Assembly: GCA_020201365.1 (NCBI GenBank)
Contig: JAIVGV010000277.1
Coordinates: 1 to 37,483, forward strand
From: Acidobacteriota bacterium
Lineage (GTDB): Bacteria > Acidobacteriota > Blastocatellia > Pyrinomonadales > Pyrinomonadaceae
Direction: 5' to 3'
DNA length: 37,483 nucleotides
Positions within the stretch are counted from its first letter, which is position 1. Each line of letters starts with the position of its first letter. The notes below the pieces were generated by a model. That model had not been told where the DNA came from. It ran no database searches and saw only the letters and a list, made by a program, of their open reading frames with translations. Of this stretch, positions 12,719 through 36,272 are shown piece by piece. Both the position numbers and the translations under genes were made by a program.

Positions 12719-14671
12719 ATGTGCGGCATCGCCGGATTCGTGGACGCGGGCGGGCGGCTCTGTGCGGAGGAGCGCGCCGCGCTCGTCGCGCGCATGTGCG
12801 AGGTGATCGCGCACCGCGGACCCGACGAGCAGGGGGCGGAGGTCGTCGGGCAGGCGGCGCTCGGAATGCGTCGGCTGTCGATCATAGACCTCGCCGGAGG
12901 TCACCAGCCGATGCGCGGCTGCGACCCGCGCGTCTCGCTCGTCTTCAACGGCGAGATTTACAACTTCCGCGAGCTGCAGCGCGACCTGGAAGCGCGCGGG
13001 CACAAATTCCACACCCACTCCGACACGGAGACCATCGCGCACGCCTACGAAGAGTACGGCAAGGCTTGCGTCGAACACCTGCGCGGCATGTTCGCCTTCG
13101 CCGTCTGGGACGACTCGAAGCGAGAGCTGTTCGCCGCGCGCGACCGCGCGGGGAAGAAGCCGCTCTATTATTCGTTGACGCCTTCGGGCGCGCTCGTCTT
13201 CGGCTCCGAGTTGAAGTCGCTGTTGCTCCACCCCGAAGTCACGCGCGAAACCAGCCTCGAAGCGCTCGACGCCTATCTCTCATTCGGCTACGTGCCCGAC
13301 CCGCTCTCGATCTTCGTCCGAATCAACAAACTCCCGCCCGGTCACGCGCTCACCTTCGACGGCGCGCGCGCGAGCGTCGAGCAGTATTGGGACTTTCCTT
13401 TCGCGTCCGAAGCGAAGCCGCGAAGCGAGGACGAGTACGTCGCCGAGCTGCGCGAGTTGCTCGACGAAGCCGTGCGCATCCGCCTCGTCGCCGACGTGCC
13501 GCTCGGCGCTTTTCTGTCCGGCGGCGTGGATTCGAGCACGGTCGTGGGCTTGATGGCGCGCCACACGCCACAGCCCGTCAAGACCTTCTCCATCGGCTTC
13601 CGCGAAGACAGCTTCGACGAGCTGAAATACGCGCGCGTCGCCGCCAAGCATTTCGCGACCGACCACCACGAGTTCATCGTCACGCCCGACATCTGCCGCG
13701 TCGTGGACGATCTCGTCTGGCACTTCGACGAGCCGTTCGCCGACTCCTCGTCAATCCCGACGCACGCCGTCTCGCGCCTCGCGCGCGAGCACGTCAAGGT
13801 CGCGCTTTCGGGCGACGGCGGCGACGAGCTGTTCGCGGGCTACACGCGCTACGTCGTTGACCGGCGGCGCGGCTTCTTCGACCGCGTGCCGCGCGCCGTG
13901 CGCGAAGGCTTGATGCTGCCCTTGAGCCGCCGGCTGCCGCACGGCGCGCGGGGGCGCAACTACCTCTACACGAACGCGCACGATCCCACGGGGCGCTACC
14001 TCAACAGCGTCGCCGTCTTCACGCCTCTCAACAAGCGCGCGCTCTACTCGCCGGATTTTCAAAGCGTGCTCGCCGGACGCGCCGACGCCTTCGAGAGCTT
14101 CCGCGAGATCGCGGCGCGCGCGCCCGCGACGGATCAGCTCGCCGCGATGCTCTACCTCGACAGCAAGACCTATCTGCCCGGCGACATCCTGACGAAAGTT
14201 GATCGCATGAGCATGGCGGTCTCGCTCGAAGCGCGCGTGCCGCTCCTCGATCACAAGCTGATGGAGTTCGCCGCGCGCCTGCCCTCGTCGCTGAAGATGC
14301 GCGGGCTCGAAACGAAGCACCTCTTCAAGCGCGCCGTGCGCGGTCTCGTCCCCGACGAGATACTCGACCGCGAGAAGCAGGGCTTCGGCGTCCCCGTCAA
14401 CCGCTGGATCAACGAGGAGCTGCGCGACTACACGCGCGACGTGCTCACCGGCGCGCGCACGCGCTCGCGCGGCTACTTCAACCCACGCTACCTCTCGCTG
14501 CTCTTCGCAGAGCACGAGCGCGGGCGGCGCGACCACTCGACGCAGCTCTGGGCGCTCTTCGTCCTCGAACTCTGGCAGCGCACGTTCATTGACTCCGCGC
14601 CGCCCGAACGCGCGCCCCTGTCCGACGCGCGCGCGCTCGCCGAAGAGACGACCGTCGGCGCGCTCCCGTAA
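12719..14671 (+). CDS. Asparagine synthase family glutamine amidotransferase, paralog 1
   Basis: N-terminal MCGIAGF (class-II GATase nucleophile Cys2), RGPD, RRLSIIDL..GHQPM, FNGEIYN, and PP-loop FLSGGVDSS. Confidence 0.9.
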   Translation: MCGIAGFVDAGGRLCAEERAALVARMCEVIAHRGPDEQGAEVVGQAALGMRRLSIIDLAGGHQPMRGCDPRVSLVFNGEIYNFRELQRDLEARGHKFHTHSDTETIAHAYEEYGKACVEHLRGMFAFAVWDDSKRELFAARDRAGKKPLYYSLTPSGALVFGSELKSLLLHPEVTRETSLEALDAYLSFGYVPDPLSIFVRINKLPPGHALTFDGARASVEQYWDFPFASEAKPRSEDEYVAELRELLDEAVRIRLVADVPLGAFLSGGVDSSTVVGLMARHTPQPVKTFSIGFREDSFDELKYARVAAKHFATDHHEFIVTPDICRVVDDLVWHFDEPFADSSSIPTHAVSRLAREHVKVALSGDGGDELFAGYTRYVVDRRRGFFDRVPRAVREGLMLPLSRRLPHGARGRNYLYTNAHDPTGRYLNSVAVFTPLNKRALYSPDFQSVLAGRADAFESFREIAARAPATDQLAAMLYLDSKTYLPGDILTKVDRMSMAVSLEARVPLLDHKLMEFAARLPSSLKMRGLETKHLFKRAVRGLVPDEILDREKQGFGVPVNRWINEELRDYTRDVLTGARTRSRGYFNPRYLSLLFAEHERGRRDHSTQLWALFVLELWQRTFIDSAPPERAPLSDARALAEETTVGALP

Positions 14672-15937: not shown

Positions 15938-18472
15938 ATGAGTCTTGCGCGGCGGCGCGCGAGGGGGACGAGTTTGGCGGAGGCGCTCGACAAACTGAGG
16001 AAACTGCGCGGTCGCAGCCTCGCGGAACTGCGCGTGCGCGGCGCGCAGGCGCTCGCAGCCTTCGCCGAGCGCCGCGGCTTCTCAGCGCAGACGCGCCTCG
16101 CGACCGACGCGGAGTTCTTCAAGCAGATCGATCTCGACGCGAACGAAACCCGACGCGCGAACCGCGACTCGCCTGGCGACCCGCGCCGCCCGCGCTCCGC
16201 CGGGGAACTGCTCGCGCACTTCCGCGGGCGCACGAGCCCGCGCTTCTTCGCGTCGTTCGACGACGCGGGCGCGACAGTCGCCGCGTGGCGCGCGCGCTTC
16301 GGCGGCGGGTACGAAAAGTCTCTGGTCGAGCACGCCGAAAGGTTGGTCGCGGGCAGGTTCGATCTCCTCGGACTCCGCGATCTCTCTTTCGGCGATCCCG
16401 TGGACTGGCACGTCGAGCCCGTCTCGGGCAAACGCGCGCCGCTCGCGCACTGGAGCCGCATCAGCTACCTCGATCCGTCGGTCGCGGGCGACAAGAAGTT
16501 CACCTGGGAGCTGAACCGTCACCAGCACTTCCAGACGCTCGGTCGCGCGTACCTCGCGACCGAAGACGAGCGTTACGCCGCGACGTTCGCCGCGCACCTC
16601 GCTTCGTGGATGGACGCGAACCCGCCGAAGCAAGGCATCAACTGGGCGAGCAGCCTCGAAGTCGGCTTCCGCGCGATCTCTTGGCTCTGGGCGCTCCACT
16701 TCTTCCGCGAGTCGCCGCGCCTCACGCCGTCGCTCTTCACGCGCGCGCTCAAGTTCCTCTTCTTACACGCGCGCCATCTCGAAACGTACCTCTCGACCTA
16801 CTTCAGCCCGAACACGCACCTGACGGGCGAGGCGCTCGGACTCTTCTACCTCGGCACGCTCCTGCCCGAACTCGAAGGCGCGTCGCGCTGGCGCGAGACC
16901 GGCAGGCGCGTGCTCACAGAACAACTCGCCCGCCACGTCCGCGCCGACGGCACCTACTTCGAGCAGTCGAGCTACTACCACCGCTACACCGCCGACTTCT
17001 ACACGCACTTCCTCCTGCTCGCGCGCGCGAACGGCGAGGGGGCGGAGACTTACGTCGAGCAGAAACTCGTCGCGCTGCTCGATCACCTGATGCTCGCGAC
17101 GCGCCCCGACGGCACGACGCCGCTCTACGGCGACGACGACGGCGGACGCCTCTCGCAGCTCGAAGAGCTACGAGCGCCGGACGACTTCCGCGCCGCGCTC
17201 TCCGACGGAGCCGCGCTCTTCGCGCGCGCGGACTACAAGTTCGTCGCCGAACAACTTTCTGAAGAGACTCTGTGGCTGCAAGGCTCGCGCGGTGTCGAGA
17301 CCTTCGACTCGCTCGAAGCCGCGCCGCCCGCCCGCGCCTCGTCCGCCTTCGGCGACGGCGGCTACTACGTCATGCGCGACGGCTGGACGCGCCGCGCAAA
17401 CTTCATGCTCCTCGACTGCGGCGCGCACGGCGCGGACAACTGCGGACACGCGCACGCCGACGCGCTCTCCTTCGACGCCGCCGCGCGCGGGCGCACGCTC
17501 CTCGTTGACCCCGGAACCTACACCTACACCGGCGCGAGCGATCTGCGCGACCACTTCCGCTCGACCTCCGCGCACAACGCGCTCACGGTTGACGGCGAGT
17601 CGTCTTCCGTCCCGCGCGGCGCGTTCCACTGGTCGCACGTCGCGCGCGCCTCGGCGCGCCGCTGGACGAGTCGCCCGCGCTTCGACTACTTCGAGGGTGA
17701 GCACGACGGCTTCGCGCGCCTCGCGGGGCAAGAGCGCTACACGCGCGCCGTGCTCTTCGTCAAAAATGATTACTGGATCGTGCGCGACCGCGTGCGCTCT
17801 TCCGCGCCGCACCGCTACGATCTTAACTTCCACCTCGCCGCGGGCACGCGCGCGCGCGTCGAAGGGCGGGAAGGCGCGGACGCCGTGCGCGTCTCGGACT
17901 CAGGCGGCGAAGACTTGCTGACGCTCTGCGCGTTCGGCGGCGACAGCGGGAGTTGGGCGGTCGAGCGGGGTTGGGTCTCGCGCTGCTACGGCGCGCGCGA
18001 GCCCGCGCCCGTCTGCCGCTTCGCCGCGCGCGGCGCGGGCGCGCAGGAGTTCTTCACGTTCGTGCTGCCGCAGGGCGCGCGGAGTGAGAGCGCGACGACG
18101 GTGGAGGGCGTGCGACGCAAGAGCGATGAAGCGCGCGCGGGTGTCTTCGAGTTGCGCCGCGGCGCGGCGTTCGATCTACTGCTCACGCGCGATGGCGGCG
18201 AGATCGCCGGCGACGAAGGGAGTTGCGAAGATGACAGATTGACCTCCGATTTCGCGTGGACGTGGGCGCGCTTCGACGAGGCGGGCGCGCTCGCGGAGAT
18301 GATCTTGATCGAAGGCCGCCGCTGCTCGGTTGACGGGCTGACGATCTTCGAGAGCCGCGAACGGGTCGCGTGCGTCGTCGTCAGTCGAGACGGCGACGAG
18401 TTTGTGGTGGAGACCGACGACGGGCGGAAGAGGATCGCCGCGGGCGAAAGTCTCGCGGGCGTCGGGCGCTGA
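15938..18472 (+). CDS. Heparinase II/III-like / alginate-lyase-fold family protein (polysaccharide lyase or epimerase-like modifier)
   Basis: N-terminal alpha/alpha toroid-like region (KFTWELNRHQHF, INWASSLEVGFRAISWLW). C-terminal CGHAHADALSFD...HNALTVDG is typical of the Hepar_II_III domain. Confidence 0.7.
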   Translation: MSLARRRARGTSLAEALDKLRKLRGRSLAELRVRGAQALAAFAERRGFSAQTRLATDAEFFKQIDLDANETRRANRDSPGDPRRPRSAGELLAHFRGRTSPRFFASFDDAGATVAAWRARFGGGYEKSLVEHAERLVAGRFDLLGLRDLSFGDPVDWHVEPVSGKRAPLAHWSRISYLDPSVAGDKKFTWELNRHQHFQTLGRAYLATEDERYAATFAAHLASWMDANPPKQGINWASSLEVGFRAISWLWALHFFRESPRLTPSLFTRALKFLFLHARHLETYLSTYFSPNTHLTGEALGLFYLGTLLPELEGASRWRETGRRVLTEQLARHVRADGTYFEQSSYYHRYTADFYTHFLLLARANGEGAETYVEQKLVALLDHLMLATRPDGTTPLYGDDDGGRLSQLEELRAPDDFRAALSDGAALFARADYKFVAEQLSEETLWLQGSRGVETFDSLEAAPPARASSAFGDGGYYVMRDGWTRRANFMLLDCGAHGADNCGHAHADALSFDAAARGRTLLVDPGTYTYTGASDLRDHFRSTSAHNALTVDGESSSVPRGAFHWSHVARASARRWTSRPRFDYFEGEHDGFARLAGQERYTRAVLFVKNDYWIVRDRVRSSAPHRYDLNFHLAAGTRARVEGREGADAVRVSDSGGEDLLTLCAFGGDSGSWAVERGWVSRCYGAREPAPVCRFAARGAGAQEFFTFVLPQGARSESATTVEGVRRKSDEARAGVFELRRGAAFDLLLTRDGGEIAGDEGSCEDDRLTSDFAWTWARFDEAGALAEMILIEGRRCSVDGLTIFESRERVACVVVSRDGDEFVVETDDGRKRIAAGESLAGVGR

Positions 18473-18486
18473 AGGTCTAAGAGAGC

Positions 18487-20295
18487 ATGTGCGGGATTAG
18501 TGGCATCGCATTTTCGAGCCGGTCCGGGCGCAGCGTGGACGCCGCGGTGCTGCGGCGCATGTGCGACTCGATCCGCCACCGCGGTCCCGACGACGAGGGC
18601 TACTTCGTCCGAGGCGCGGTCGGTCTCGGCATGCGCCGCCTCTCCATCGTTGACGTGGCGGGCGGTCACCAGCCGATGACGAACGAGGACGGCACCGCCC
18701 GCATCGTCTATAACGGCGAAATCTACAACCACGCCGACTACCGCGAAGAACTCGAAGCGCGCGGGCACACGTACCGGACGCACTGCGACACCGAGACGAT
18801 CCTGCACCTCTACGAGGAGCACGGCGCGGGCGTCGTCGGGCGACTGCGCGGCATGTTCGCCTTCGCGATCTGGGACGAGCGGAAACGCGAGTTGTTCGTC
18901 GCGCGCGACCGCCTCGGCGTCAAGCCCCTGTACTACGTCCACGACGCGGCGGGCTCGCTCTTCTTCGGCTCGGAGATCAAGACGCTCCTCGAAGCCTCCG
19001 CCGTCAAGCCCTCGATCAACTTCGCCGCGCTGCCCGACTATCTCGCCAACCACGCGCCTTCGGGGGAAGAGACACTGTTCGCCGGCGTCAAGCGGCTGCT
19101 GCCCGGTCACACGCTCGTGTGGCGCGACGGCGAGATCAGGATCGAGAAATACTGGGACGTTCATTTCGCGCCGTCGCCGGAAGACGCTAACGGCGGGCGA
19201 CGAAAGAGCGACGAAGAGTACGTCGCCGAGTGGTCTGATCTGTTCCGCACGTCCGTGCGGCTGCGTCTGATGGCTGACGTGCCGCTCGGCATGTTCCTCT
19301 CCGGCGGCATCGACTCTTCGGCAATCGCCGCGACGATGAGCCGGATGGTCGCGGCGCCCGTCAAGACCTTCTCGGTCGCCTTCGCCGAGCGCGAGGCGAA
19401 CGAGTTGAGTTACGCGCGAATCGTCGCGCGCGCCTTCAAGACGGATCACCACGAGGTCGTCGTCTCGCCCGAAGACTTCTGGGGCGCGCTCCCCCAACTC
19501 ATCTGGCACGAGGACGAGCCGCTCGCGCATCCGAGCAGCGTCGCGCTCTACTTCGTCTCGCTGCTCGCCTCGCGCCACGTCAAAGTCGTCTTGACGGGCG
19601 AGGGCTCGGACGAGATGCTCGCGGGCTACGACCGTTACCGCAAGACGGTCTTCAACCTCGCGCTCGGCGCGCGCTACCACGCGGGCGTCCCCGTCTCCGT
19701 GCGGGGCGCCGTCGCGCGCACGGTCGCGCGTCTGCCCGCGTCGCGCGCGAAGCACAAGCTGCGCCGCACGTTCCTCGCGCTCACGCCCGACATCGAGACG
19801 ATCTACTTCGATAACTTCTCCGTCTTCTCGCGCGCGAGGCAGCGCGAACTGCTGACGCCCGAGGCGCGCGCGCGCACCGGCGCGGCGAACCCTTACGCGG
19901 AGGTGACGCGCTGCCTCGCCGAGACCGACGCCGAGACCCTGCTCGGGCGCTTGCTCTACGCCGACATCAAAACTTATCTGCACGAGCTGCTGATGAAGCA
20001 GGATCAGATGAGCATGGCGGCGTCGGTCGAGAGCCGCGTGCCGTTCCTCGATCACAAGCTCGTCGAGTACACGGCGCGCCTGCCCGAACGCCTGAAGCTG
20101 CGCGGGTGGACGACGAAATATATTTTGCGACGGAGCATGAAAGACTTTCTGCCCGAAGCGATCCTGCGGCGGCGCAAGATGGGCTTCCCCGTGCCCGTCG
20201 GCGCGTGGCTGCGCGGCGCGCACACCGGCGTGCTCGACGAGTACGTGCTCGGCGAACGCGCGCGCGCGCGGGGCTTGTTCGACGAGTCGTTCTGA
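18487..20295 (+). CDS. Asparagine synthase family glutamine amidotransferase, paralog 2
   Basis: MCGISGIAF, RGPDDEG, RRLSIVDVAGGHQPM, YNGEIYNH, PP-loop FLSGGIDSS. Confidence 0.9.
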   Translation: MCGISGIAFSSRSGRSVDAAVLRRMCDSIRHRGPDDEGYFVRGAVGLGMRRLSIVDVAGGHQPMTNEDGTARIVYNGEIYNHADYREELEARGHTYRTHCDTETILHLYEEHGAGVVGRLRGMFAFAIWDERKRELFVARDRLGVKPLYYVHDAAGSLFFGSEIKTLLEASAVKPSINFAALPDYLANHAPSGEETLFAGVKRLLPGHTLVWRDGEIRIEKYWDVHFAPSPEDANGGRRKSDEEYVAEWSDLFRTSVRLRLMADVPLGMFLSGGIDSSAIAATMSRMVAAPVKTFSVAFAEREANELSYARIVARAFKTDHHEVVVSPEDFWGALPQLIWHEDEPLAHPSSVALYFVSLLASRHVKVVLTGEGSDEMLAGYDRYRKTVFNLALGARYHAGVPVSVRGAVARTVARLPASRAKHKLRRTFLALTPDIETIYFDNFSVFSRARQRELLTPEARARTGAANPYAEVTRCLAETDAETLLGRLLYADIKTYLHELLMKQDQMSMAASVESRVPFLDHKLVEYTARLPERLKLRGWTTKYILRRSMKDFLPEAILRRRKMGFPVPVGAWLRGAHTGVLDEYVLGERARARGLFDESF

Positions 20296-26656: not shown

Positions 26657-27532
26657 ATGGTTGCCGAAAATTCAGAGACGCGGATCGAGATGAGTTCGCA
26701 CGCCGAGGAGGTGGCGGGCGGCGCGCGGTTCACGTTCGGCGAGAACTGGCGCCGCTTCCTCGCGCTCTTGGACGAGCGGCGCATCGCGGAGGCGGAAGAC
26801 TCCTTGCGGCGGATGCTCGAAGTCGAAAGCCTCGCGGGGAAGAGTTTCCTCGACATCGGATCGGGGAGCGGCTTGTTCAGCCTCGCGGCGCGCAGGCTTG
26901 GTGCGCGCGTCCGCTCGTTCGACTACGATCCGCAGTCGGTCGCGTGCACGCGCGAGCTGCGCCGGCGCTATTTCCCGGAAGACGACCACTGGAAGGTCGG
27001 GGAGGGCTCGGCGCTCGACGAGAATTTTGTGAAGTCGCTCGGGCTATTCGATGTCGTCTATTCGTGGGGCGTGCTGCACCACACGGGCGAGATGTGGCGC
27101 GCGCTGGCGAACGCCGCCGTGCCGGTCGCGCCGGGCGGCAAGCTCTTCGTCGCCATCTACAACGACACGGGCACGCAGGCGGCGCGCTGGAAGTGGATCA
27201 AAAAGACTTACAACCGCCTGCCGAAACTTTTGCGCGCGCCTTACGCCGCGCTCGTCTCCGCGCCCGAAGAGGCGAAGGCGTTGGCGCGCTCTATCGTGCG
27301 TCTGAAGCCGGGCGAGTACGCGCGCACGTGGCGCGCTTACGAGCGCGGGAATCGCGGGATGAGCAAGTGGCGCGACATCGTTGACTGGGTGGGCGGCTAC
27401 CCCTACGAGGTCGCCACGCCCGACCAGATTTTCGACTTCTACCGCGCGCGCGGCTTCGCGCTCAACAAGCTCCACTGCGGCGGAGTGGGCTTGGGCTGCA
27501 ACGAGTTCGTGTTCGAGAAGACGGGCTCCTGA
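26657..27532 (+). CDS. Class I SAM-dependent methyltransferase
   Basis: Motif I FLDIGSGSGLFSLAARRLGA, then VRSFDYD and DVVYSWGVLHH. ATG 26657 lies 8 nt after the upstream stop. Confidence 0.8.
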   Translation: MVAENSETRIEMSSHAEEVAGGARFTFGENWRRFLALLDERRIAEAEDSLRRMLEVESLAGKSFLDIGSGSGLFSLAARRLGARVRSFDYDPQSVACTRELRRRYFPEDDHWKVGEGSALDENFVKSLGLFDVVYSWGVLHHTGEMWRALANAAVPVAPGGKLFVAIYNDTGTQAARWKWIKKTYNRLPKLLRAPYAALVSAPEEAKALARSIVRLKPGEYARTWRAYERGNRGMSKWRDIVDWVGGYPYEVATPDQIFDFYRARGFALNKLHCGGVGLGCNEFVFEKTGS

Positions 27533-27542
27533 AGTTCTCATC

Positions 27543-29117
27543 ATGAGGTCTAAGAGGGTTCTCGCAGTCGCGCTCTCGGTCGCCGCGCTCGGCGCGTGCC
27601 TGATCGTGGCGTTCGCGCAGATGACGCGACCGCGGCGCGCGACCGACGCGGGCGTGCGCGGCGAGATCGTCGTGCGCGCGGGCGGCGACTTGCAGCGCGC
27701 GTTAGATTCCGCGCGCGCTGGCGAAACGCTCGTCCTCGAAGCGGGCGCGACCTTCAAGGGCACGTTCACGCTGCCGAAGAAGGAGGGCGACGAGTTCATC
27801 ACCGTCCGCTCTTCGCGCGCCGGGGAGTTGCGCGAGGGCGCGCGCGTCTCGCCCGCGGACGCGCCGCTCATGCCGAAGCTGCTGGCTCCGGGTCGCGGCG
27901 CGGCGGCTTTGCAGACCGCGCCGGGCGCGCACCACTGGCGTCTCGTCGGTCTGGAGATCGCGCAGCCCGACGCCGCGACGGTCGTCTTCGATCTCGTCAA
28001 GCTCGGCGACGGGAGCAGCGCGCAAGACACGCTCGCGAAAGTCCCGCACCACATCACGGTTGATCGCTGCTACGTCCACGCGGCGGACGCGGGCGAGGCG
28101 AAGCGCGGCGTCTCCTTGCAGAGCGCGGACACGGAGATCACGAACAGCTACGTCGCGGGCTTCAAGGTGAAGGGGCAGGAGGCGCAGGCGGTCGCGGGCT
28201 GGAACGGACCCGGCCCCTACAACATCATCAACAACTATCTGGAAGGCGCGGGCGAGAACGTCATCTTCGGCGGCGCGGCTGCGTCCGTGCCCGGACTCGT
28301 CCCGACCGGCATCGAGATTCTACGCAACCACCTCGACAAGCCCGTGGCGTGGCGCGGCGTGTACACCGTCAAGAACTCGCTCGAACTCAAGAACGCGCGG
28401 CGCGTGCGCATCGAAGGCAACTTGATCGAGCACTGCTGGCTCGACGCGCAGCAGGGCTACGCGATCCTCTTCACGCCGCGACCGAACGACTCCGGCGCAT
28501 GGGCTGAAGTCTCCGACGTGACGTTCACGAACAACGTCGTGCGCCACGTCGCCGCCGCGTTCGACATCTCCGGCGAGGACTCGTTGTTCACGTCGAACCC
28601 GCGCGAGCGTCGTCTGCACCGCGTGAAAGTCTCGAACAACTTGTTCGAGGACGTTGACCTGACGGCGTGGGGCGGCGACGGCTGCTTCCTGAAACTTCTG
28701 AGCGGCGCGGACTCGGTCGCCTTCGAGCACAACACGATCCTCAGTCGCGGCTGGGCGCTCGTCAAACTCGACGGCGACCCTTCGACCGGCTTCGTCTTCC
28801 GCGACAACGTGGCGCGGCACAACGACTACGGCGTGACCGGCAACAGCGTCGGCTACGGCGCGCGCGCTCTCGAAACTTACGCGCCCGGCGCGGTCTTCAC
28901 CGGCAACGTGATCGCCAGAGAGTTCAACGCGCCTTGGAACACCGAGCAGGTCTATCCGCCCGGCAACAAGTTCCCCGCGAGCCTGAAAGAGGTGCTCGCG
29001 GGCGTGGACGCGGGCGACTACCGCGTGAAGCCCAACTCGAAATACAAGCGCTCAGCCAGCGACGGCAGAGACGCGGGCTGCGACTTCGATCAACTCGAAG
29101 CCGCGACGAAGAGTTGA
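27543..29117 (+). CDS. Secreted right-handed parallel beta-helix protein (putative polysaccharide lyase, epimerase or hydrolase); paralog of the N-terminal 520 aa of 33480-36272
   Basis: Signal peptide MRSKRVLAVALSVAALGACLIVAFAQ. Repetitive N-rich turn motifs (ITNSYV, IINNYLEGAGENVIFGG, FTNNVVRH, VSNNLFED, EHNTIL, FRDNVARHNDYGV). Collinear with the other paralog along its whole length. Confidence 0.7.
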   Translation: MRSKRVLAVALSVAALGACLIVAFAQMTRPRRATDAGVRGEIVVRAGGDLQRALDSARAGETLVLEAGATFKGTFTLPKKEGDEFITVRSSRAGELREGARVSPADAPLMPKLLAPGRGAAALQTAPGAHHWRLVGLEIAQPDAATVVFDLVKLGDGSSAQDTLAKVPHHITVDRCYVHAADAGEAKRGVSLQSADTEITNSYVAGFKVKGQEAQAVAGWNGPGPYNIINNYLEGAGENVIFGGAAASVPGLVPTGIEILRNHLDKPVAWRGVYTVKNSLELKNARRVRIEGNLIEHCWLDAQQGYAILFTPRPNDSGAWAEVSDVTFTNNVVRHVAAAFDISGEDSLFTSNPRERRLHRVKVSNNLFEDVDLTAWGGDGCFLKLLSGADSVAFEHNTILSRGWALVKLDGDPSTGFVFRDNVARHNDYGVTGNSVGYGARALETYAPGAVFTGNVIAREFNAPWNTEQVYPPGNKFPASLKEVLAGVDAGDYRVKPNSKYKRSASDGRDAGCDFDQLEAATKS

Positions 29118-29153
29118 GCTGAAAAATTTTTTGGCGACGCGACAAGCCATGTT

Positions 29154-29171
29154 GCGCCCCTCGCGGGGCGC
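29154..29171. terminator. GC-rich hairpin GCGCCCC-TCGC-GGGGCGC between convergent genes; possible bidirectional terminator, no U-tract
   Basis: Perfect 7-bp stem read directly. An A5T6 palindrome (29122-29132) lies just upstream. Confidence 0.35.
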
Positions 29172-29204
29172 GAAGTCGTGTGACGCGCGCGCCGCCGCCG
29201 TGCG

Positions 29205-30602
29205 CTACAACAACTCGCGCACGATCCCTTCAAACTTCCCAGCCAAGTGCGTCGCCTCGTACTCGCGCCTCACGTCGGCGTCGCCCCACGGCCGCGGGTC
29301 GCGGCATCGCGCGCGCAGGTATTCGAGAAAATTTTTCAGCGCGTCGGCTCCGGCGCGCGCGTCCGCCGGGTCAGCCGCCCAGCCGCCGAGACCCTCGATG
29401 AGCGCGCGCGCCGCGCCGCGAGGCGTGAAGCCGAAGACGGGTCGCGCCGCGCCGAGATAATCAATCAGCTTCGAGGGCAGGAAGACCGAGACGTCGGCGG
29501 GCGCGTCGATGATGAGCAGCCCGTCCGCCTCCGCCATCAGGCGCAGACTCTCGCGGTAGCCGACGGGCGGAGTCGTCACGACGAGACCCGCGCGCAGATC
29601 GCCGACGCCCGCGCGCGCGACGAGCGACGGATCGGTGACGCCGACGAGCGCGAACGTCACGCCGCGCAGCGACGATTCGTCGGTCGCGGTGAGCAACGCG
29701 AGCGAATCCAACAGGGGCGCGGGCGTGCGCGCGCCGTAAAAATTTCCGACGTGGCGGACGACGATGCGCGCGTCCTCGTCGCCGCGCGCCGCCCCGTTAA
29801 CAGCTTCGCGCGCCGCTTCGTGATCCTCGGCGCGCGCTCCCCCGCCGTGGCGTGCCCGTCCGTCATCGCTTCTCGCCGCGTCGTCATCTTCGCGCGCGGC
29901 GGGCGGCGGGTAGAGTCGCGGGTCGAAGCACTGCGGGAGCACGCGCGACTTCGCGCGCCAGCCGCGCGGGTACTTCGACATGACGAGCTCGACCGTCTCG
30001 GCTGAGGTGAAGATGAGTCGGTCGGCGGACTCGCAGACGGCGCGCTCGGCGGCGAGGTTGAAGTCGCGCGTGCGTGCGTCGGTCGAGTGGAAGGGATTGT
30101 CAACCCACGGATCGCTGAAGTGCGCGATCCACGGCGCGCGGAAAATTTTTTTTAGCTCGAGACCGACGAGGTGATCGGTCGTCGGTTGGCTGAAAGATAC
30201 GATTGCGTCGGGCGCGTACTGATTCGCGCGCGCGTAATGCTCGACCGCCCGCAGCGCGTCGCGCTTCCATGCGACGTACTGATCGGGTCGGCGATTCCAG
30301 CGATTCCACAGCGCGCGGCTGAAGCGATGCGCGGCGGCGTTGGCGTATGCGCGCGCGAGAGAGATGGAGAAGGGGACGCGCAAGATCGCTTCGAGGCGCG
30401 CGGCGGCGTCAGGCTCTAACGTCGCATCTTTGCGCGCGGCGCGCTCGTCGGCGCAGACGAGGACGGTGCTGAACGGGACGTACTTGAGCAGGCGCGCGAC
30501 CTGAATCGAGCGCGGGTAGGCGAGCGGCGGGAAGGCGAACGAGACCGCCAGCAGTTTTGTCGCCGAGTCTCGATCCGTCGGCGCGACGCTGTTCGACCGC
30601 AT
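29205..30602 (-). CDS. GT-B fold (GT4-like) glycosyltransferase with an acidic low-complexity insertion
   Basis: LLAVSFAFPPLAYPRSIQVARLLKY N-terminus. C-terminal half VRHVGNFYG...LVGV...SVFLPSKLIDYLGAARPVFGFTP is typical of the GT4 donor-binding domain. Start is ATG 30602 or 30644. The rest of the 848-aa track ORF is an antisense shadow of the asnB-like gene. Confidence 0.65.
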   Translation of the reverse strand: MRSNSVAPTDRDSATKLLAVSFAFPPLAYPRSIQVARLLKYVPFSTVLVCADERAARKDATLEPDAAARLEAILRVPFSISLARAYANAAAHRFSRALWNRWNRRPDQYVAWKRDALRAVEHYARANQYAPDAIVSFSQPTTDHLVGLELKKIFRAPWIAHFSDPWVDNPFHSTDARTRDFNLAAERAVCESADRLIFTSAETVELVMSKYPRGWRAKSRVLPQCFDPRLYPPPAAREDDDAARSDDGRARHGGGARAEDHEAAREAVNGAARGDEDARIVVRHVGNFYGARTPAPLLDSLALLTATDESSLRGVTFALVGVTDPSLVARAGVGDLRAGLVVTTPPVGYRESLRLMAEADGLLIIDAPADVSVFLPSKLIDYLGAARPVFGFTPRGAARALIEGLGGWAADPADARAGADALKNFLEYLRARCRDPRPWGDADVRREYEATHLAGKFEGIVRELL

Positions 30603-30779
30603 CGCGCAAGCAAAGCGCAGGCGCGCGTCGGCTGTCAAGAACATTCGTCGCGCGTCATCGCGCCGCGATGTGGTATGTTCGTCAGAAGCGGCGCGGGTCG
30701 TCGCGCGTCGTTCCAGAAGCCGCGCGGGTGCGGGTTCGTCGCAGCGGTCGGCGTTAGAGTCGGCAACAGAAATCGAAAG

Positions 30780-32690
30780 ATGTGCGGGATTGTCGGAATA
30801 GTCGGTGAGCTGCCGCGCGCGGAGGCGTCTGCGGTCGTGCGGCGCATGAACGAGTCGATCTTCCACCGCGGACCTGACGAGGGCGGCGAGTGGGCGGACG
30901 ACGGCTTCGCGTTCGGGATGCGCCGCCTCTCGATCATAGACCTCGCGGGCGGTCACCAGCCGATGTGGGACGAGCCGACGCGGACGGGCGTCGTCTTCAA
31001 CGGCGAGATCTACAACTACCGCGCTTTGCGCGAACGACTCGAAGCGCGCGGCGTCACGGGCTGGGCGACGCGCAGCGATACGGAAGTTGTGCTGCGGACT
31101 CTCGTCGAGGACGGCGAAGCGGGCATACACACCTGGAACGGCATGTTCGCCGTCGCCGCGTGGGACGCGCGCGCGAAAAAGTTGACGCTCGTGCGCGACC
31201 GGATGGGCGTCAAGCCGCTCTACTACTTTTGGGACGGGAAAAATTTTCTCTTCGCCTCGGAGATCAAGGCGCTGCTCGCGTCCGGGCTCGTCGCGCGGCG
31301 CGTGAATCGGCAAGCCGTGTGGGACTACCTGACGTTCCGCTACGTGCCGGAGCCCGAAACGGTCTGGGAGGACGTGCGCAAACTCCCGCCCGGACACCTG
31401 CTGCGCTTCGGGCGCGGCGGCGAGCCGCAGGTCGTCCGCTACTGGGAGAGCGATGTCGTGGCGGACGAGCGCGAGCCGCGCGACGACGCGGAAGTGGAGC
31501 GCGAGTTCGCCGCGCTGTTCGAGGACGCGGTGAATCTGCGGCTCGTCGCGTCGGACGTGCCGGTGGGAGTTTTCCTGAGCGGCGGTTTGGATTCGAGCGC
31601 GATCGCGGCGGCGGCGGTCGAGCAGGGGCACCAGAACTTTCACACCTTCTCGGTCGGCTTCGACGACGGCGGCGACGACGATGAGCTGCCCTTCGCGCGG
31701 CGCGTCGCCGAGCACGTCGGCGCGCGGCATCATGAAGTCGTCGTTAATCAAAAGCAGTTTCTCGACGAACTGCCGGAAGTCGTGCGCGCGGCTGACGAGC
31801 CGTTAGCCGATCTCACGCTCGTGCCGCTGCTCGCCGTCTCGCGGCTCGCGCGGCGTGACGTGAAGGTCGTGCTCTCCGGCGAGGGGAGCGACGAGATTCT
31901 GGCGGGCTACAACCTGGATCAGATGGAGCGCGAGTGGGATCGCGTGCGGGCGATTCAGGGGCGCGTGCCGCGCGCGGTGCTCGCGTCGGGCGCGGTGCTC
32001 TCGAAGATCGGTCGGGCGCGCGGCGTCGGTCAGAAGTTCGAGAAGCTCGCGGGCGTGCCGCTCGCCGAGTGGAACAGGCGCGCGCTGCCGCACATGACGC
32101 GCTACTTCGATCAGGGTGAGAAAGAGAACTTGTGGCGGGGCGAGTCGCACGCGGATTCGGATCGCATCCTCGAAGCGCAGTACGCGGCGGCGCGATCAAA
32201 CGATCCGCTGCAACAGTTGCTCGCCGTCTATCAGAAGTCCTGGCTCGTCGAAGACCTGTTGATGAAGGCTGACAAGATGACGATGGCGACCTCGCTCGAA
32301 GCGCGCACGCCGTTTCTGGACTTCCGCTTGGTCGAGTGGGCGAACCGACAGCCGAACCGCGTGAAGGTCAGGCGCGAGCGTTCCGGCCTCTACACGACGA
32401 AGAGCGTGCTGCGCCGCTTCTGCGCGACTCGTCTGCCGCGCGAAATCCTCACGCGCCCGAAAAAAGGTTTCCCCGTCCCCGCCTACCGCTGGCTGCGCGA
32501 GGGGCTCGACTCGTGGGCGCGCGACACGCTGCTCGGCGCGGAGAGCCGACTCGCGCGCGCGTTCGACCGCGAAGCCGTGAGCCGCACCGTCGAAGACGCG
32601 CGGCAGGGAATCGGCGACGCGAGACACCGCGTGTGGCTGCTCCTCATACTCGAAACTTGGCTGCGCGTTTGGGACGCACAACTCGCGTGA
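30780..32690 (+). CDS. Asparagine synthase family glutamine amidotransferase, paralog 3
   Basis: MCGIVGIVG at ATG 30780 (the catalytic Cys must be residue 2, so the track extension from 30675 is rejected). RGPDEGG, RRLSIIDLAGGHQPM, FNGEIYNY, PP-loop FLSGGLDSS. Confidence 0.9.
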   Translation: MCGIVGIVGELPRAEASAVVRRMNESIFHRGPDEGGEWADDGFAFGMRRLSIIDLAGGHQPMWDEPTRTGVVFNGEIYNYRALRERLEARGVTGWATRSDTEVVLRTLVEDGEAGIHTWNGMFAVAAWDARAKKLTLVRDRMGVKPLYYFWDGKNFLFASEIKALLASGLVARRVNRQAVWDYLTFRYVPEPETVWEDVRKLPPGHLLRFGRGGEPQVVRYWESDVVADEREPRDDAEVEREFAALFEDAVNLRLVASDVPVGVFLSGGLDSSAIAAAAVEQGHQNFHTFSVGFDDGGDDDELPFARRVAEHVGARHHEVVVNQKQFLDELPEVVRAADEPLADLTLVPLLAVSRLARRDVKVVLSGEGSDEILAGYNLDQMEREWDRVRAIQGRVPRAVLASGAVLSKIGRARGVGQKFEKLAGVPLAEWNRRALPHMTRYFDQGEKENLWRGESHADSDRILEAQYAAARSNDPLQQLLAVYQKSWLVEDLLMKADKMTMATSLEARTPFLDFRLVEWANRQPNRVKVRRERSGLYTTKSVLRRFCATRLPREILTRPKKGFPVPAYRWLREGLDSWARDTLLGAESRLARAFDREAVSRTVEDARQGIGDARHRVWLLLILETWLRVWDAQLA

Positions 32691-32800
32691 GTCGCCTTCC
32701 GAAAACTGCAAAAAACCTCAGCAATTTTCACAAAATAGGGGTGTGAGCGGATGCGCTTCCGGGCAGTCTGACCGATTAAAGAGTTTAACGGAGAGACCTA

Positions 32801-32829
32801 TTGACAAACAATCGGCGGAACGGTTAAAT
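32801..32829 (+). promoter_or_regulatory. Sigma-70-like promoter candidate: consensus TTGACA, 17-nt spacer, TTAAAT
   Basis: Hexamers and spacing counted directly, in the AT-richest stretch of the window. Located ~70-95 nt upstream of the first riboswitch-like element. Confidence 0.4.
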
Positions 32830-32896
32830 ACTTGTGGCAGTTGCTTGCGACGCCGTTCGTAGCAAGCGACGTGATCTTTCGCAAGGCGACGATTGT

Positions 32897-33008
32897 ACAC
32901 GATAAGGGCAAACCTGCCGCGAGGCAGGGACGCAAAGCCGTGAGTCTCCGTCGAAGGCGTGACGCATCATCCGCGCCGACGCACGCGAGACAGTCTGGTT
33001 GCCGAAGG
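32897..33008 (+). promoter_or_regulatory. c-di-GMP-I (GEMM-I) riboswitch aptamer candidate, copy 1
   Basis: AAGGGCAAACC-TGCC-GCGA-GGCA-GGGACGCAAAGCC (32904-32939), a 6-bp helix with a GNRA loop flanked by the two conserved junction strands. A second helix follows (GTCTC 32944-48 / GAGAC 32987-91), then GGTTGCCGAAGG (32997-33008). Confidence 0.75.
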
Positions 33009-33033
33009 CAGTCGGAGAAAGCCGCGACTTTAG

Positions 33034-33082
33034 AACCGTCGTGACGGCGCGCCAGAAGACGCGCCACCGCGAGAACGGTTTT
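33034..33082 (+). terminator. Interrupted 16-bp hairpin running into TTTT; candidate expression platform (attenuator) of riboswitch copy 1
   Basis: AACCGT/ACGGTT (6 bp), CGTG/CGCG (4 bp including one G-U) and GGCGCG/CGCGCC (6 bp) around the loop CCAGAAGA. T-run at 33079-33082. Confidence 0.5.
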
Positions 33083-33383
33083 CGAGTTCCTTTCCTCACG
33101 AACGTCAGCCCTACAGAGTCGGTACAGGAACTCGCCCGCTAGTCACGGCAGTAAGAGTCCGCACGCGACCCACGCCCGACCCCATCGGCGTCGAGCGCGC
33201 GGCTCATAGATTTTCCCTCCGAATCCCCTTCCATCAAACACGAGACTTTGCCGGTCATCCTTCCGCCTTCGTCCTGAAGGTTCGCCCGTCTCAGTGTCGC
33301 CGACACTCGCACAGGCTGTACGCGAAGACTCCTTGAGCTTCGTCACGCGCACGCTTCTCCCGCGCGCCGCAGCCGCCACCGAC

Positions 33384-33468
33384 TAAAGGCACCCCCGCAG
33401 CGATGCGGGTCCGCAAAGCCCAGGAGTCTCGCCCACCCCGTCAAGGCGAGATCGTCCGGCTACCGAAG
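33384..33468 (+). promoter_or_regulatory. Divergent c-di-GMP-I-like aptamer candidate, copy 2, abutting the Shine-Dalgarno of the 33480 gene
   Basis: AAAGGCACC-CCCGCA-GCGA-TGCGGG-TCCGCAAAGCC (33386-33420). Helix TCTCGCC (33427-33) / GGCGAGA (33445-51). GGCTACCGAAGAGG (33458-33471) with ATG at 33480. Confidence 0.55.
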
Positions 33469-33479
33469 AGGCAAGAACA

Positions 33480-36272
33480 ATGGTTAACACGCGGTCGTTC
33501 CGCCCCTCGCAAGCATCTTCCTTCCGTCTCAGCAGACTCACACGCACGCTCGTCGTACTCTTCGCGCTCCTCGCCTGCGCGCACGGCGCGGCGCGCGCCG
33601 CGACGATCACGGTGCCCGCGGGCGCGAGCCTTCAGGCGGTGCTTGACGCCGCGCAGCCCGGCGACACGATCCTGCTCGACGCGGGCGCGAGCTACGTCGG
33701 TCCCTTCACGCTGCGCAACAAGCAGGGCACGAACACCGACGCCGACTGGATCACGATCCGCACCAACGCGCCCGACTCTCAGTTGCCAGCCGCGGGCGTG
33801 CGCGTCACCCCCGACTACGCGCCCGTGCTCGCCAAGCTGCTCTCGCCCGGCCACGCCGAAGCCGCCGTGCAGACCGAGCCCGGCGCGCACCACTACCGCT
33901 TCGTCGCCGTCGAGTTCGCGCGCACGTCGCCCGACTCCATCGTTTACGATCTCGTCAAGCTTGGCGACGGCAGCCCCGCGCAGAACACCGCCGCGAGCGT
34001 GCCGCACCACTTTCAGCTCGACCGCTGCTACGTCCACGGCGACACGGGCGATCTCAAGCGCGGCATCTCTCTGCAAAGCGGCTCGACCGACATCACCAAC
34101 AGCTACGTCTCCGAGTTCCACGTCCACGGTCAGGAGGCGCAGGCGGTCGCGGGCTGGAACGGACCCGGCCCCTACAACATCATCAACAACTATCTGGAAG
34201 GCGCGGGCGAGAACGTCATCTTCGGCGGCGCCATGGCGTGCGTACCGAACCAGACGCCGACCGACATACGCATCCTGCGCAACTACCTCCGCAAGCCGCC
34301 GGAGTGGCGCGGCGTCTGGACGGTCAAGAACCTGCTCGAACTCAAGCACGCACGGCGCGTCACCATTGACGGCAACGTGATGGAAGGTAACTGGCCCGAC
34401 GCGCAGTCAGGGTTCTCCATCCTCTTCACGCCGCGCCCGAACGACAGCGGCGCGTGGGCTGTGGTCGAGGACGTGACGTTCACGAACAACGTCGTGCGCC
34501 ACATCTCGGCGGGGCTCAATTTTCTGGGCGAAGATTACCTCTACCAGCCAGCGCCGACGGAAAACCGCCTGCGCCGCGTCCGCGTTTACAACAACCTGTT
34601 CGAGGACGTGGGCGGGCAGTGGGGTGGCAACGGCGCGTTCGCCCAAATCCTCACCGGCTCCGACACCGTGACCATTGACCACAACACGGTGCTGCAAACC
34701 GGATCGATGATCCTCCTGGACGGCGACCCGAGCACGAACGTGCGGATCGCGAACAACATCGCGCGTCACAACGACTACGGCGTCTTCGGCAGCGGCGCCG
34801 GCTACGGCAACACCGCGCTCACCAAATACCTGCCCGGCGGCGTCTTCACGAGCAACGCCGTCGCCAAAGAGTTCAACGCGCCGTGGAACACCGAACTCGT
34901 CTATCCGGCGGGCAACTTCTTCCCCGCGACTTTGAACGACGCGGGCTTCGTCAACTTCGCGGGCGGCGACTATCACCTCGCGTCCTCCTCGCCCTATAAG
35001 CACGCCGCGACCGACGGCACAGACCTCGGCTGCGACGTTGACGCGATCAACGCCGCGATGGGCATCGCGCCCTCGCCGACGCCGACGCCGACGCCGACCG
35101 CGACGCCCACTCCTTCTCCGACACCGACTCCCAACCCGACGCCGACGCCGACTCCCGGCTCGCCCGTCTCGCTCACGCTCGTCGCGCAGGCGCAGACGCT
35201 CGCCGCCAGCCTCTCGAACGATCCTTCGAGCGGCGCGCAGCAGATCAGTCCGCTCGTCGCGTCGGTCGAGCAGGCGTACACGGTCTTCACGGGCGAGTCG
35301 AGCCGCTTCGCGAGCGCCGCGCAGATTGATACGTCCTTGCGCGCCGCGCTCTACTTCGCGCGCGCTTCATCGGCGCTCGCCTCGGCTGAGGGCGCATCGG
35401 GCGGCGTGCAGAGCCGACTTCAGATCGTCTCCGTGCAGCTCGCGCTCACGCGCGACTTGATGAGCGGCAACGCGAGCGGCGAGACCGTCGCGGGCGCGAA
35501 CCCCGCGTCCGTCACGCGCACGAACGTCATCGGCGCGGCGGCGACCGCCTCTTCGGCGAGCCTCGCGCCCGCGCTCGCGCCCGAAAGCCTCGGCGTCATC
35601 ACGGGCGATCCCGACCAGAGCCCGCTCGCCTTGCAGACTGCCGTGGCGACGTTCGACGACGCGAATCGCCCTCCGTTCGAGCTCGCGGGCGTGAGCGTCA
35701 CGGTCGGCGGGCGCGCCGCGCAGATTCTCTCCGTCTCGCCGTCGCGCGTCGGCTTCGTCGCGCCCGCGGGACTGCCGGCGGGCGACGCCGAAGTGATCGT
35801 CACGCTGCAACAGGGCTACGTCTCGCGCGGCACGGTCACGATCTCTCCGGTCGCGCCCGGCATCTTCACGTCGGACGGATCGGGCGCGGGCGGCGCGCTC
35901 GTCTTGAACGCCGCGACCTTCTCCGGCGGCTCGTTCGACGTCTGGACGCAGGGCAACTTCTCCGCCGACAAGCACACGCGCCTGATGATCTTCGCGACGG
36001 GCTTGCGCGGCGCGCCGAACTCTAACGCGACGAACGACGTGGCGGGCGCGGGCGCGAACCTCGCCGAGTCGGTCACGGTCGAGGCGCATTTGCAGAACAA
36101 CACCGTCTATCAGTTGCAGGTCGAGTACGCGGGCGCGGCGCAGAGCGGCGCGTCGGGCGTCGATCAAGTCAACGTCGTCCTCCCGCCCTTCCTGATGGGC
36201 GCGGGGCAGGTCGATCTCACGATCATCGTCAGCGGTCAGCGCAGCAACGCCGCGTCCGTCATCGTGCGCTGA
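33480..36272 (+). CDS. Secreted multidomain protein: right-handed beta-helix catalytic-type domain, Pro/Thr linker, middle region, and an Acidobacteria-type (Solibacter) Ig-like C-terminal domain
   Basis: Signal peptide (LVVLFALLACAHGAARAA). The beta-helix region is collinear with 27543-29117. Linker PSPTPTPTPTATPTPSPTPTPNPTPTPTP. The C-terminal part (GVSVTVGGRAAQILSVSPSRVGFVAP...PGIFT...GVDQVNVVLP...SNAASVIV) resembles the Soli_cterm-type domain as recalled. Confidence 0.75.
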   Translation: MVNTRSFRPSQASSFRLSRLTRTLVVLFALLACAHGAARAATITVPAGASLQAVLDAAQPGDTILLDAGASYVGPFTLRNKQGTNTDADWITIRTNAPDSQLPAAGVRVTPDYAPVLAKLLSPGHAEAAVQTEPGAHHYRFVAVEFARTSPDSIVYDLVKLGDGSPAQNTAASVPHHFQLDRCYVHGDTGDLKRGISLQSGSTDITNSYVSEFHVHGQEAQAVAGWNGPGPYNIINNYLEGAGENVIFGGAMACVPNQTPTDIRILRNYLRKPPEWRGVWTVKNLLELKHARRVTIDGNVMEGNWPDAQSGFSILFTPRPNDSGAWAVVEDVTFTNNVVRHISAGLNFLGEDYLYQPAPTENRLRRVRVYNNLFEDVGGQWGGNGAFAQILTGSDTVTIDHNTVLQTGSMILLDGDPSTNVRIANNIARHNDYGVFGSGAGYGNTALTKYLPGGVFTSNAVAKEFNAPWNTELVYPAGNFFPATLNDAGFVNFAGGDYHLASSSPYKHAATDGTDLGCDVDAINAAMGIAPSPTPTPTPTATPTPSPTPTPNPTPTPTPGSPVSLTLVAQAQTLAASLSNDPSSGAQQISPLVASVEQAYTVFTGESSRFASAAQIDTSLRAALYFARASSALASAEGASGGVQSRLQIVSVQLALTRDLMSGNASGETVAGANPASVTRTNVIGAAATASSASLAPALAPESLGVITGDPDQSPLALQTAVATFDDANRPPFELAGVSVTVGGRAAQILSVSPSRVGFVAPAGLPAGDAEVIVTLQQGYVSRGTVTISPVAPGIFTSDGSGAGGALVLNAATFSGGSFDVWTQGNFSADKHTRLMIFATGLRGAPNSNATNDVAGAGANLAESVTVEAHLQNNTVYQLQVEYAGAAQSGASGVDQVNVVLPPFLMGAGQVDLTIIVSGQRSNAASVIVR

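Follow-up and report, generated by a model that had tools for sequence, protein, structure and literature searches.

A probable tandem of c-di-GMP-I-class aptamers in the leader of a secreted beta-helix protein gene of Acidobacteriota

We examined a stretch of DNA of 37,483 nucleotides (nt) from an Acidobacteriota bacterium of the Pyrinomonadaceae (contig JAIVGV010000277.1, positions 1 to 37,483, here called the window), and in it the leader of a gene for a secreted beta-helix protein. Positions 32801-33482 form a single promoter-proximal mRNA leader on the plus strand, ~650 nt long, with two aptamers of the cyclic di-GMP-I (c-di-GMP-I) class in tandem. It is very probable that these are riboswitch aptamers standing before a secreted beta-helix/Soli_cterm gene with which an acidobacterial exopolysaccharide (EPS) cluster ends. 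c-di-GMP-I riboswitches are a validated class. A first-pass annotation of the region had described a single c-di-GMP-I aptamer followed by an attenuator hairpin; this account was incomplete, having missed the second aptamer (33378-33467), which adjoins the ribosome-binding site.

Identification of the two aptamers

Scanning the whole window with Rfam cmscan, we found RF03167 (c-di-GMP-I-GGC) at 32898-33007 on the plus strand, at 65.4 bits against a gathering score of 59 (E = 2e-13). Clan competition masked a further match of the c-di-GMP-I clan (CL00126), itself above the gathering score of its model. Apart from two chance-level matches, no other Rfam family was found on the leader at E values up to 10. 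The core AAGGGCAAACC-TGCC-GCGA-GGCA-GGGACGCAAAGCC (32904-32939) and the 3′ strand GGTTGCCGAAGG (32997-33008) can be read directly in the sequence; like the hairpin with its TTTT and the promoter hexamers treated below, they lie where the first-pass annotation had put them. Its choice of a c-di-GMP-I aptamer is upheld by a covariance-model match above the gathering score and by covariation of the helices across related leaders, although the model that it had named for the check, RF01051, is not the best one for aptamer 1. The parts of aptamer 1 are these:

32890..33014, plus strand: aptamer 1, c-di-GMP-I class, type 2, no 11-nt receptor (RF03167 match and alignment of 76 leaders)
32890-95/33009-14, plus strand: extended P1, 6 base pairs (bp), CGAUUG with CAGUCG
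32898, 32900 and 32901 paired with 33007, 33004 and 33003, plus strand: Rfam P1
32908-09/32932-33, plus strand: P1a
32913-18/32923-28, plus strand: P1b, with the GCGA loop at 32919-22
32936-47/32988-33000, plus strand: P2, with a variable distal insert at 32948-87
G32907, A32934 and C33002, plus strand: equivalents of the ligand-contact bases G20, A47 and C92, from alignment to the model consensus

The structure was assessed in an alignment (A2) of 76 distinct leaders, the window and 75 relatives, counting the Rfam structure together with the 6-bp extension of P1. Aptamer 1 is 94.0% paired, with compensatory changes at 8 pairs, and none of 500 shuffles reached the observed values; slid controls for the structure were just 26-52% paired. 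The extended P1 taken alone is 93.6% paired and has coordinated variants such as CGGUUG/CAAUUG and CGAUUG/CGGUCG. Loops are invariant, and helices are kept by compensatory changes. The helices proposed in the first-pass annotation are thus supported by homologous leaders. P1, which it could not resolve by eye, is now described by the Rfam P1 plus the extension at 32890-95/33009-14, and the mutually exclusive pairings that it saw in the second helix fall in the distal insert of P2, which differs in both length and sequence among relatives.

The same scan placed the second aptamer at 33378-33467, with RF01051 at 42.2 bits against a gathering score of 35, ending 12 nt before the ATG at 33480; with RF03167 it scores just 39.9 (gathering score 59). 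Among 24 related second aptamers (alignment A3), the structure is 97.7% paired, P1 is 92% paired and 6/6 P1b pairs covary. Its parts are:

33375..33472, plus strand: aptamer 2, c-di-GMP-I class (RF01051 match and 24 related second aptamers)
33375-79/33468-72, plus strand: outer P1, GCC-C/G-GGC in the window, UCAC/GUGA in most relatives
33380-81/33464-65, plus strand: inner P1, CG/CG
33389-90/33413-14, plus strand: P1a
33394-99/33404-09, plus strand: P1b, with a GCGA loop
33417-28/33450-61, plus strand: P2
G33388, A33415 and C33463, plus strand: ligand-contact equivalents

G20, A47 and C92 are the ligand-contact bases, in the Vc2 numbering of the crystal structures. Because their equivalents are kept, c-di-GMP is the predicted ligand of both aptamers, and it is the one to be expected from the sequences.

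A true c-di-GMP-I-GGC variant, with a ligand other than c-di-GMP, would agree with the best Rfam match of aptamer 1, RF03167 at 65.4 bits, which is likewise the best model for its counterparts in L003, L005, L016, L019, L030, L045 and other related loci; aptamer 1 has the P1 sequence and the receptor-less P2 in common with this family. This variant was reportedly described by Weinberg et al. in PNAS in 2017. We take the meaning of 'GGC' to lie in the difference between the two consensus sequences after ACGC, which is GACGCAAAgCc in RF01051 and GACGCGAAgCc in RF03167. The window reads ACGCAAAGCC, with ACGCAAA (32930-36) where the RF03167 consensus has ACGCGAA; the alignment match line is blank at the differing column, which holds A32934 rather than G, so that the base that names the variant is not present, and the equivalents of G20 and C92 are canonical. 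Moreover, in L001, the closest relative, the nearly identical aptamer 1 is assigned to RF01051 (57.7 bits). The higher RF03167 score most likely stems from the common type-2 architecture and P1 sequence, and a GGC-type ligand is very unlikely here. Judged by its sequence, aptamer 1 is an ordinary member of the c-di-GMP-I class that resembles the GGC seed in architecture (no 11-nt tetraloop receptor, common P1 sequence). Chance resemblance in GC-rich DNA, or a coding region on the minus strand, would have in its favor the minus-strand open reading frames (ORFs) at 32798-33067 (89 amino acids, aa) and 32824-33099 (91 aa) that overlap the region, but it does not fit the Rfam E value of 2e-13, the helix-preserving compensatory changes and invariant loops of the 76 leaders, or the conservation of the element along with the promoter and the downstream gene; such an origin is effectively refuted, and we give it practically no credence.

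Recurrence of the tandem leader

Homologues of the downstream protein were found in eight Acidobacteriota loci from metagenome-assembled genomes, several of them Pyrinomonadaceae. L001 (82% identity), L003 and L005 have upstream sequence, with both aptamers at matching relative positions. L004, L006, L007 and L008 encode the homologue, and no riboswitch was found in them even at E = 1; the association of gene and riboswitch is therefore not universal. Searching metagenomes for the 21-nt aptamer 1 core gave at least 120 loci; among those listed, a beta-helix homologue is encoded in ~40. When 14 homologue-bearing loci were scanned with Rfam, two aptamers were found in L016, L019, L026, L028, L045, L101, L106 and L122. 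The tandem layout precedes beta-helix homologues in the window and at least 11 other Acidobacteriota loci; the tandem c-di-GMP-I leader of this gene family is therefore a recurrent acidobacterial unit.

The two aptamers of the window are separated as follows:

33083..33374, plus strand: inter-aptamer spacer, ~290 nt

The ORF list has no plus-strand ORF of at least 60 aa between the aptamers. The spacer is poorly conserved between two pairs, the window with L001 and L003 with L005.

Other arrangements were seen among the related loci. The metagenome contig Ga0074195_1000040 (L066:5846-6382) has the aptamer 1 core three times with a period of 258 nt, a triplet c-di-GMP-I array with a GAAA loop and CUAAAG-type P2 in each copy. 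In L034, ~413 nt 3′ of the first aptamer, there is a second aptamer-like element, GGTCCGCGAAGCC, with G at the A47 equivalent as in the RF03167 consensus; the Rfam scan did not report it at the gathering score. A further conserved leader occupies the 100-300 nt that come after aptamer 1 in L022, L031, L043, L049, L082, L096, L111, L113, L121, L123, L125 and L053, with blocks comprising a stem then TTTTGAAGT; CGGCTGGAATCATTC; a hairpin; GATGATTCCTCTTCTTCC; ATTTCCTTCT; and AAACCAGACAAC. No Rfam family covers this further leader. The GGCCGGAACCATTC block is common to L003 and L005.

Possible outputs of the two aptamers

The start of the gene lies immediately beyond aptamer 2:

33468..33482, plus strand: Shine-Dalgarno sequence GAGG (33468-71), within the 3′ strand of aptamer 2 P1, and start codon ATG (33480-82)

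In relatives the 3′ strand of this P1 leads directly into a Shine-Dalgarno sequence, GUGAGG, GUGGGG or GAGAGG, with the ATG 10-16 nt 3′ of the CCGAA motif in the same strand. Closing of P1 by the ligand would hide the Shine-Dalgarno sequence and shut translation off at high c-di-GMP, and we lean slightly toward aptamer 2 being a translational OFF switch of this kind. In the window, the free fold is predicted to pair the Shine-Dalgarno region (33466-72) with CCCCTC at 33502-07, in codons 8-9 of the ORF. When 21 second-aptamer leaders were folded, the Shine-Dalgarno partners were mixed, giving no decision between ON and OFF.

Two hairpins bear on the output of aptamer 1:

33034..33082, plus strand: terminator-like hairpin with TTTT, pairs 33036-38/33076-78, 33039-43/33068-72 and 33046-51/33060-65, T run 33079-82
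32995..33015, plus strand: alternative hairpin CUGGUUGCC-GAA-GGCAGUCGG, which sequesters the 3′ strand of aptamer 1 including C33002 and excludes P1 and P2

The interrupted, terminator-like hairpin (33034-78) has a fold energy of -30.8 kcal/mol and, compared with shuffles, a z of -3.3; a strict terminator scan of 32500-33700 did not call it, and just four T follow it. The state with the alternative hairpin is the unconstrained minimum free energy (MFE) structure (-106.0 kcal/mol); enforcing the aptamer gives -99.5, a gap that we infer to be small enough for ligand binding to overcome. The alternative hairpin can be accommodated by all leaders and is 88.9% paired in the 76, and no covariation beyond that of shuffles was found for it there. 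In a transcript ending at 33058, the MFE structure formed without constraint pairs 33036-53, the 5′ arm of the terminator-like hairpin, with 32885-32907, the 5′ strand of P1. This helix is a candidate kinetic antiterminator; enforced in the full-length RNA it gives -101.1 kcal/mol, 4.9 above the terminator state (-106.0). Without ligand, the free 5′ strand would pair first with the 5′ arm and delay termination; with ligand, P1 would lock the 5′ strand and remove the antiterminator, so that the terminator forms and the output is OFF. Our tentative proposal, to which we give less than even odds, is that aptamer 1 acts at the RNA level in this way, the most likely target being the hairpin and TTTT at 33034-82. 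The two aptamers together would then be a same-ligand tandem acting at two levels ('bi-mechanism'), with sharper repression.

Another partner for the same strand lies further downstream. The sequence GCCCTACAGAGTCGGTACAGGAACTCGCC (33109-33137) is able to pair over ~19 bp with positions 32885-32908, the 5′ half of aptamer 1, at -22.5 kcal/mol, and may be a long-range anti-aptamer element. L001 has CCCTTA at the place aligned to it; L003 has GCCTTTATC, complementary to GATAAAGGC. Across 77 leaders, complementarity to the aptamer 5′ strand stands at -16.1 kcal/mol against -14.5 for shuffles (p ~1e-5, for sequences that are not independent); the enrichment is modest, and no fixed position of the downstream partner was found.

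Several observations weigh against the above reading of the leader. The ACC/UCC internal loop that aptamer 2 has in place of AAA/GAC departs from the consensus. In the free MFE structures of 14 of the 21 related second-aptamer leaders, the Shine-Dalgarno sequence is paired with early coding sequence. The terminator-like hairpin is deleted in L003 and L005, is followed by only TT in L001, the closest relative, and occurs with four U after aptamer 1 in only 5 of 27 tandem leaders. Its pairs have a probability of ~1 (ViennaRNA) whether the aptamer is enforced or the alternative hairpin is present, and equilibrium switching is not predicted. For the antiterminator duplex (-22 kcal/mol), 16% of same-length windows of the GC-rich sequence reach an equal or lower energy, and the counterpart in L001 is not significant. 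In L084, L090 and L119 the 5′ arm of a terminator is the 3′ strand of P1 or extended P1 (GAAGGCGATCGGAGAA ... TTCTCCG ... ACGTCGTTTT), and enforcing the extended P1 abolishes that terminator. By these folding models the three platforms are ON-type, unlike that of the window, and because they differ from it the direction of the switch is not transferable from relatives.

What the first-pass annotation called an attenuator hairpin is therefore a stable hairpin with TTTT, absent from L003 and L005 and present in both predicted states; as a ligand-controlled attenuator it is plausible but unproven. There is a substantial chance, somewhat short of even, that it is constitutive (a pause site, a stabilizer or a leaky terminator) and not the output of aptamer 1, which would then work otherwise, as an ON-type platform like that of L084, by Rho or RNase access, or through the pairing of 33109-33137. 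The poor conservation of the hairpin and its prediction in both aptamer states speak for this, as do the differing platforms of relatives and the 19-bp complement of the aptamer 5′ strand at ~33109-33137. However, a GC-rich stem with TTTT after an A-rich tract has the look of an intrinsic terminator, a stem then TTTTGAAGT is present at the equivalent place in several related leaders, and there is a candidate helix for kinetic antitermination. A complete unit is also made by promoter, aptamer and terminator-like hairpin, followed by the poorly conserved spacer of ~290 nt, which would suit a stand-alone small RNA of ~245 nt (~32836-33082) that buffers or reports c-di-GMP and leaves the gene to aptamer 2 alone. 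A consensus scan found no second promoter between the aptamers, though, and the tandem layout is kept with the gene even where the hairpin is absent; we judge such a small RNA most unlikely.

Promoter and leader elements outside the Rfam model

Upstream and around aptamer 1 the leader has further elements:

32801..32829, plus strand: promoter candidate, TTGACA (32801-06), 17-nt spacer, TTAAAT (32824-29), read in the sequence and kept in relatives
32840..32870, plus strand: 5′ leader hairpin, pairs 32840-48/32862-70 and 32850-52/32858-60, seen in the MFE fold
32873..32880, plus strand: pyrimidine motif GATCTTTC, kept as (T)GATCTTT(Y) in most of ~85 related leaders
33014..33021, plus strand: purine tract GGAGAAAG, directly 3′ of extended P1; GGAGAAAG, GGAAAGAG or similar in relatives

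The promoter candidate of the first-pass annotation proved to be conserved. It is unchanged across a four-leader alignment, and TTGACA-(16-18)-TT(T/A)AAT was found in 68 of 86 related leaders, with a spacing of 17 nt in 54 and at a median of 57 nt 5′ of the aptamer. A strict sigma-70 promoter scan of 32500-33700 made no call, the -10 hexamer being without A at position 2; we retained the promoter on the evidence of conservation although the consensus scan was silent. Relatives have differing self-complementary sequences at the place of the 5′ hairpin. This hairpin, the GATCTTT(Y) motif and the purine tract are leader elements outside the Rfam model that are common to relatives. Pairing of the pyrimidine and purine tracts (GAUCUUUC/GGAGAAAG) is possible and by eye suits many leaders, but it is given no weight here: G-U wobble allows nearly any register, and MAFFT places gaps there.

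The downstream gene and its cluster

The gene proposed to be regulated, with other genes of the window, is listed here:

33480..36272, plus strand: gene for a 930-aa secreted protein with signal peptide, right-handed beta-helix, Pro/Thr linker and Soli_cterm domain
12719-14671, 18487-20295 and 30675-32690: three paralogous genes for glutamine-hydrolysing asparagine synthase, all within one EPS cluster
15938-18472: heparinase II/III-like gene
27381-29117: second beta-helix ORF

The 930-aa protein matches TIGR03437 (Soli_cterm) at 1.6e-31, and its matches to Pfam Beta_helix and NosD are close to the thresholds; a sequence search against the PDB gave a match to the low-complexity linker only. The cluster in the window encodes two Wzy-like proteins, several glycosyltransferases and a flippase-like domain, as well as a polysaccharide deacetylase, a UDP-glucose dehydrogenase, the heparinase II/III-like protein and the second beta-helix protein. 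The gene context given in the first-pass annotation, a secreted beta-helix gene of an EPS locus, holds, the protein having a signal peptide, a beta-helix and a Soli_cterm domain, and control of such a gene by c-di-GMP is biologically coherent. Whether repression or activation should be expected depends on what the beta-helix protein does.

Elsewhere in the cluster, an 848-aa ORF on the minus strand (29205-31751), which lacks any Pfam match and shares its place with part of the AsnB gene, is probably spurious. The stretch of ~1.5 kb at 29118-30674, between the beta-helix ORF at 27381-29117 and AsnB, has no gene assigned.

Comparison with known riboswitches

Compared with RF01051, the c-di-GMP-I (GEMM-I) family whose prototype is Vc2 of Vibrio cholerae, the aptamers here have the same three-helix architecture with a GNRA loop on P1b, keep the GGCAAAC and ACGCAAAGCC junction strands and the equivalents of G20, A47 and C92, and likewise lie on the sense strand in the 5′ untranslated region (UTR) of a gene whose function is extracellular or at the cell surface. 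The RF01051 model is matched above its gathering score by aptamer 2 directly and, for aptamer 1, by the counterpart in L001. Aptamer 1 differs in being of type 2, with a GCGA or GYGA loop and without the 11-nt tetraloop receptor, and in having a lineage-specific 6-bp extension of P1, a 5′ hairpin and flanking pyrimidine and purine tracts outside the model; aptamer 2 differs in its ACC/UCC internal loop, in place of AAA/GAC. The c-AMP-GMP (3′3′-cGAMP) riboswitch, GEMM-Ib, shares the fold and the clan. That class has A at the G20 position (PMC9481103), whereas both aptamers here have G (32907 and 33388).

Tandem arrangements of this class are well represented: no tandem type has been reported in greater numbers than that of c-di-GMP-I, with 347 doublets and 12 triplets (Sherlock et al., 2022, PMC9481103), and a validated triplet of Bacillus thuringiensis is cited in the same paper. 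Same-ligand tandems of 'pseudo-cooperative' and 'bi-mechanism' kinds have been described, the bi-mechanism layout, with a terminator first and a ribosome-binding site second, for other classes (PMC9481103). The leader described here resembles bi-mechanism tandems in having two aptamers of the same class in one UTR with no ORF between them, a terminator-like stem after the first and the second abutting the ribosome-binding site. It differs from the tandems of that paper in its unusually long spacing (~370 nt from one aptamer to the other), in a first platform that is not conserved, in combining two aptamer sub-types, and in its host phylum, Acidobacteriota, a word absent from the paper's main text.

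Biological meaning

c-di-GMP-I riboswitches and their tandem forms are already well documented, and the leader brings little of a new kind. What the lineage has added, like the ACC/UCC loop in aptamer 2, amounts to variation within the class and not to a new kind. The acidobacterial version does have conserved parts beyond the Rfam model, namely the extended P1, the 5′ hairpin, the flanking tracts and the divergent second aptamer, and these could improve annotation models. The leader is also a natural case for studying two-level control by one ligand.

A bolder reading, which we consider improbable, is that the aptamers are non-redundant and make a band-pass filter and, more broadly, that acidobacterial leaders are unrecognized composite RNAs with functions of their own outside the aptamer. 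It is suggested because some relatives have an ON-type first platform and aptamer 2 has a differing internal loop and a P1 that carries the Shine-Dalgarno sequence. Were aptamer 1 ON, aptamer 2 OFF and their affinities different, the gene would be expressed only at intermediate c-di-GMP; the parts of the composite RNA would be the promoter, the 5′ hairpin, GAUCUUU, the extended-P1 aptamer, the purine tract and the further conserved blocks.

With the tandem leader very probably of the c-di-GMP-I class, the secreted beta-helix/Soli_cterm family of soil Acidobacteriota is now tied to c-di-GMP signaling, which gives a clue to the function of the protein and of the adjacent EPS cluster.

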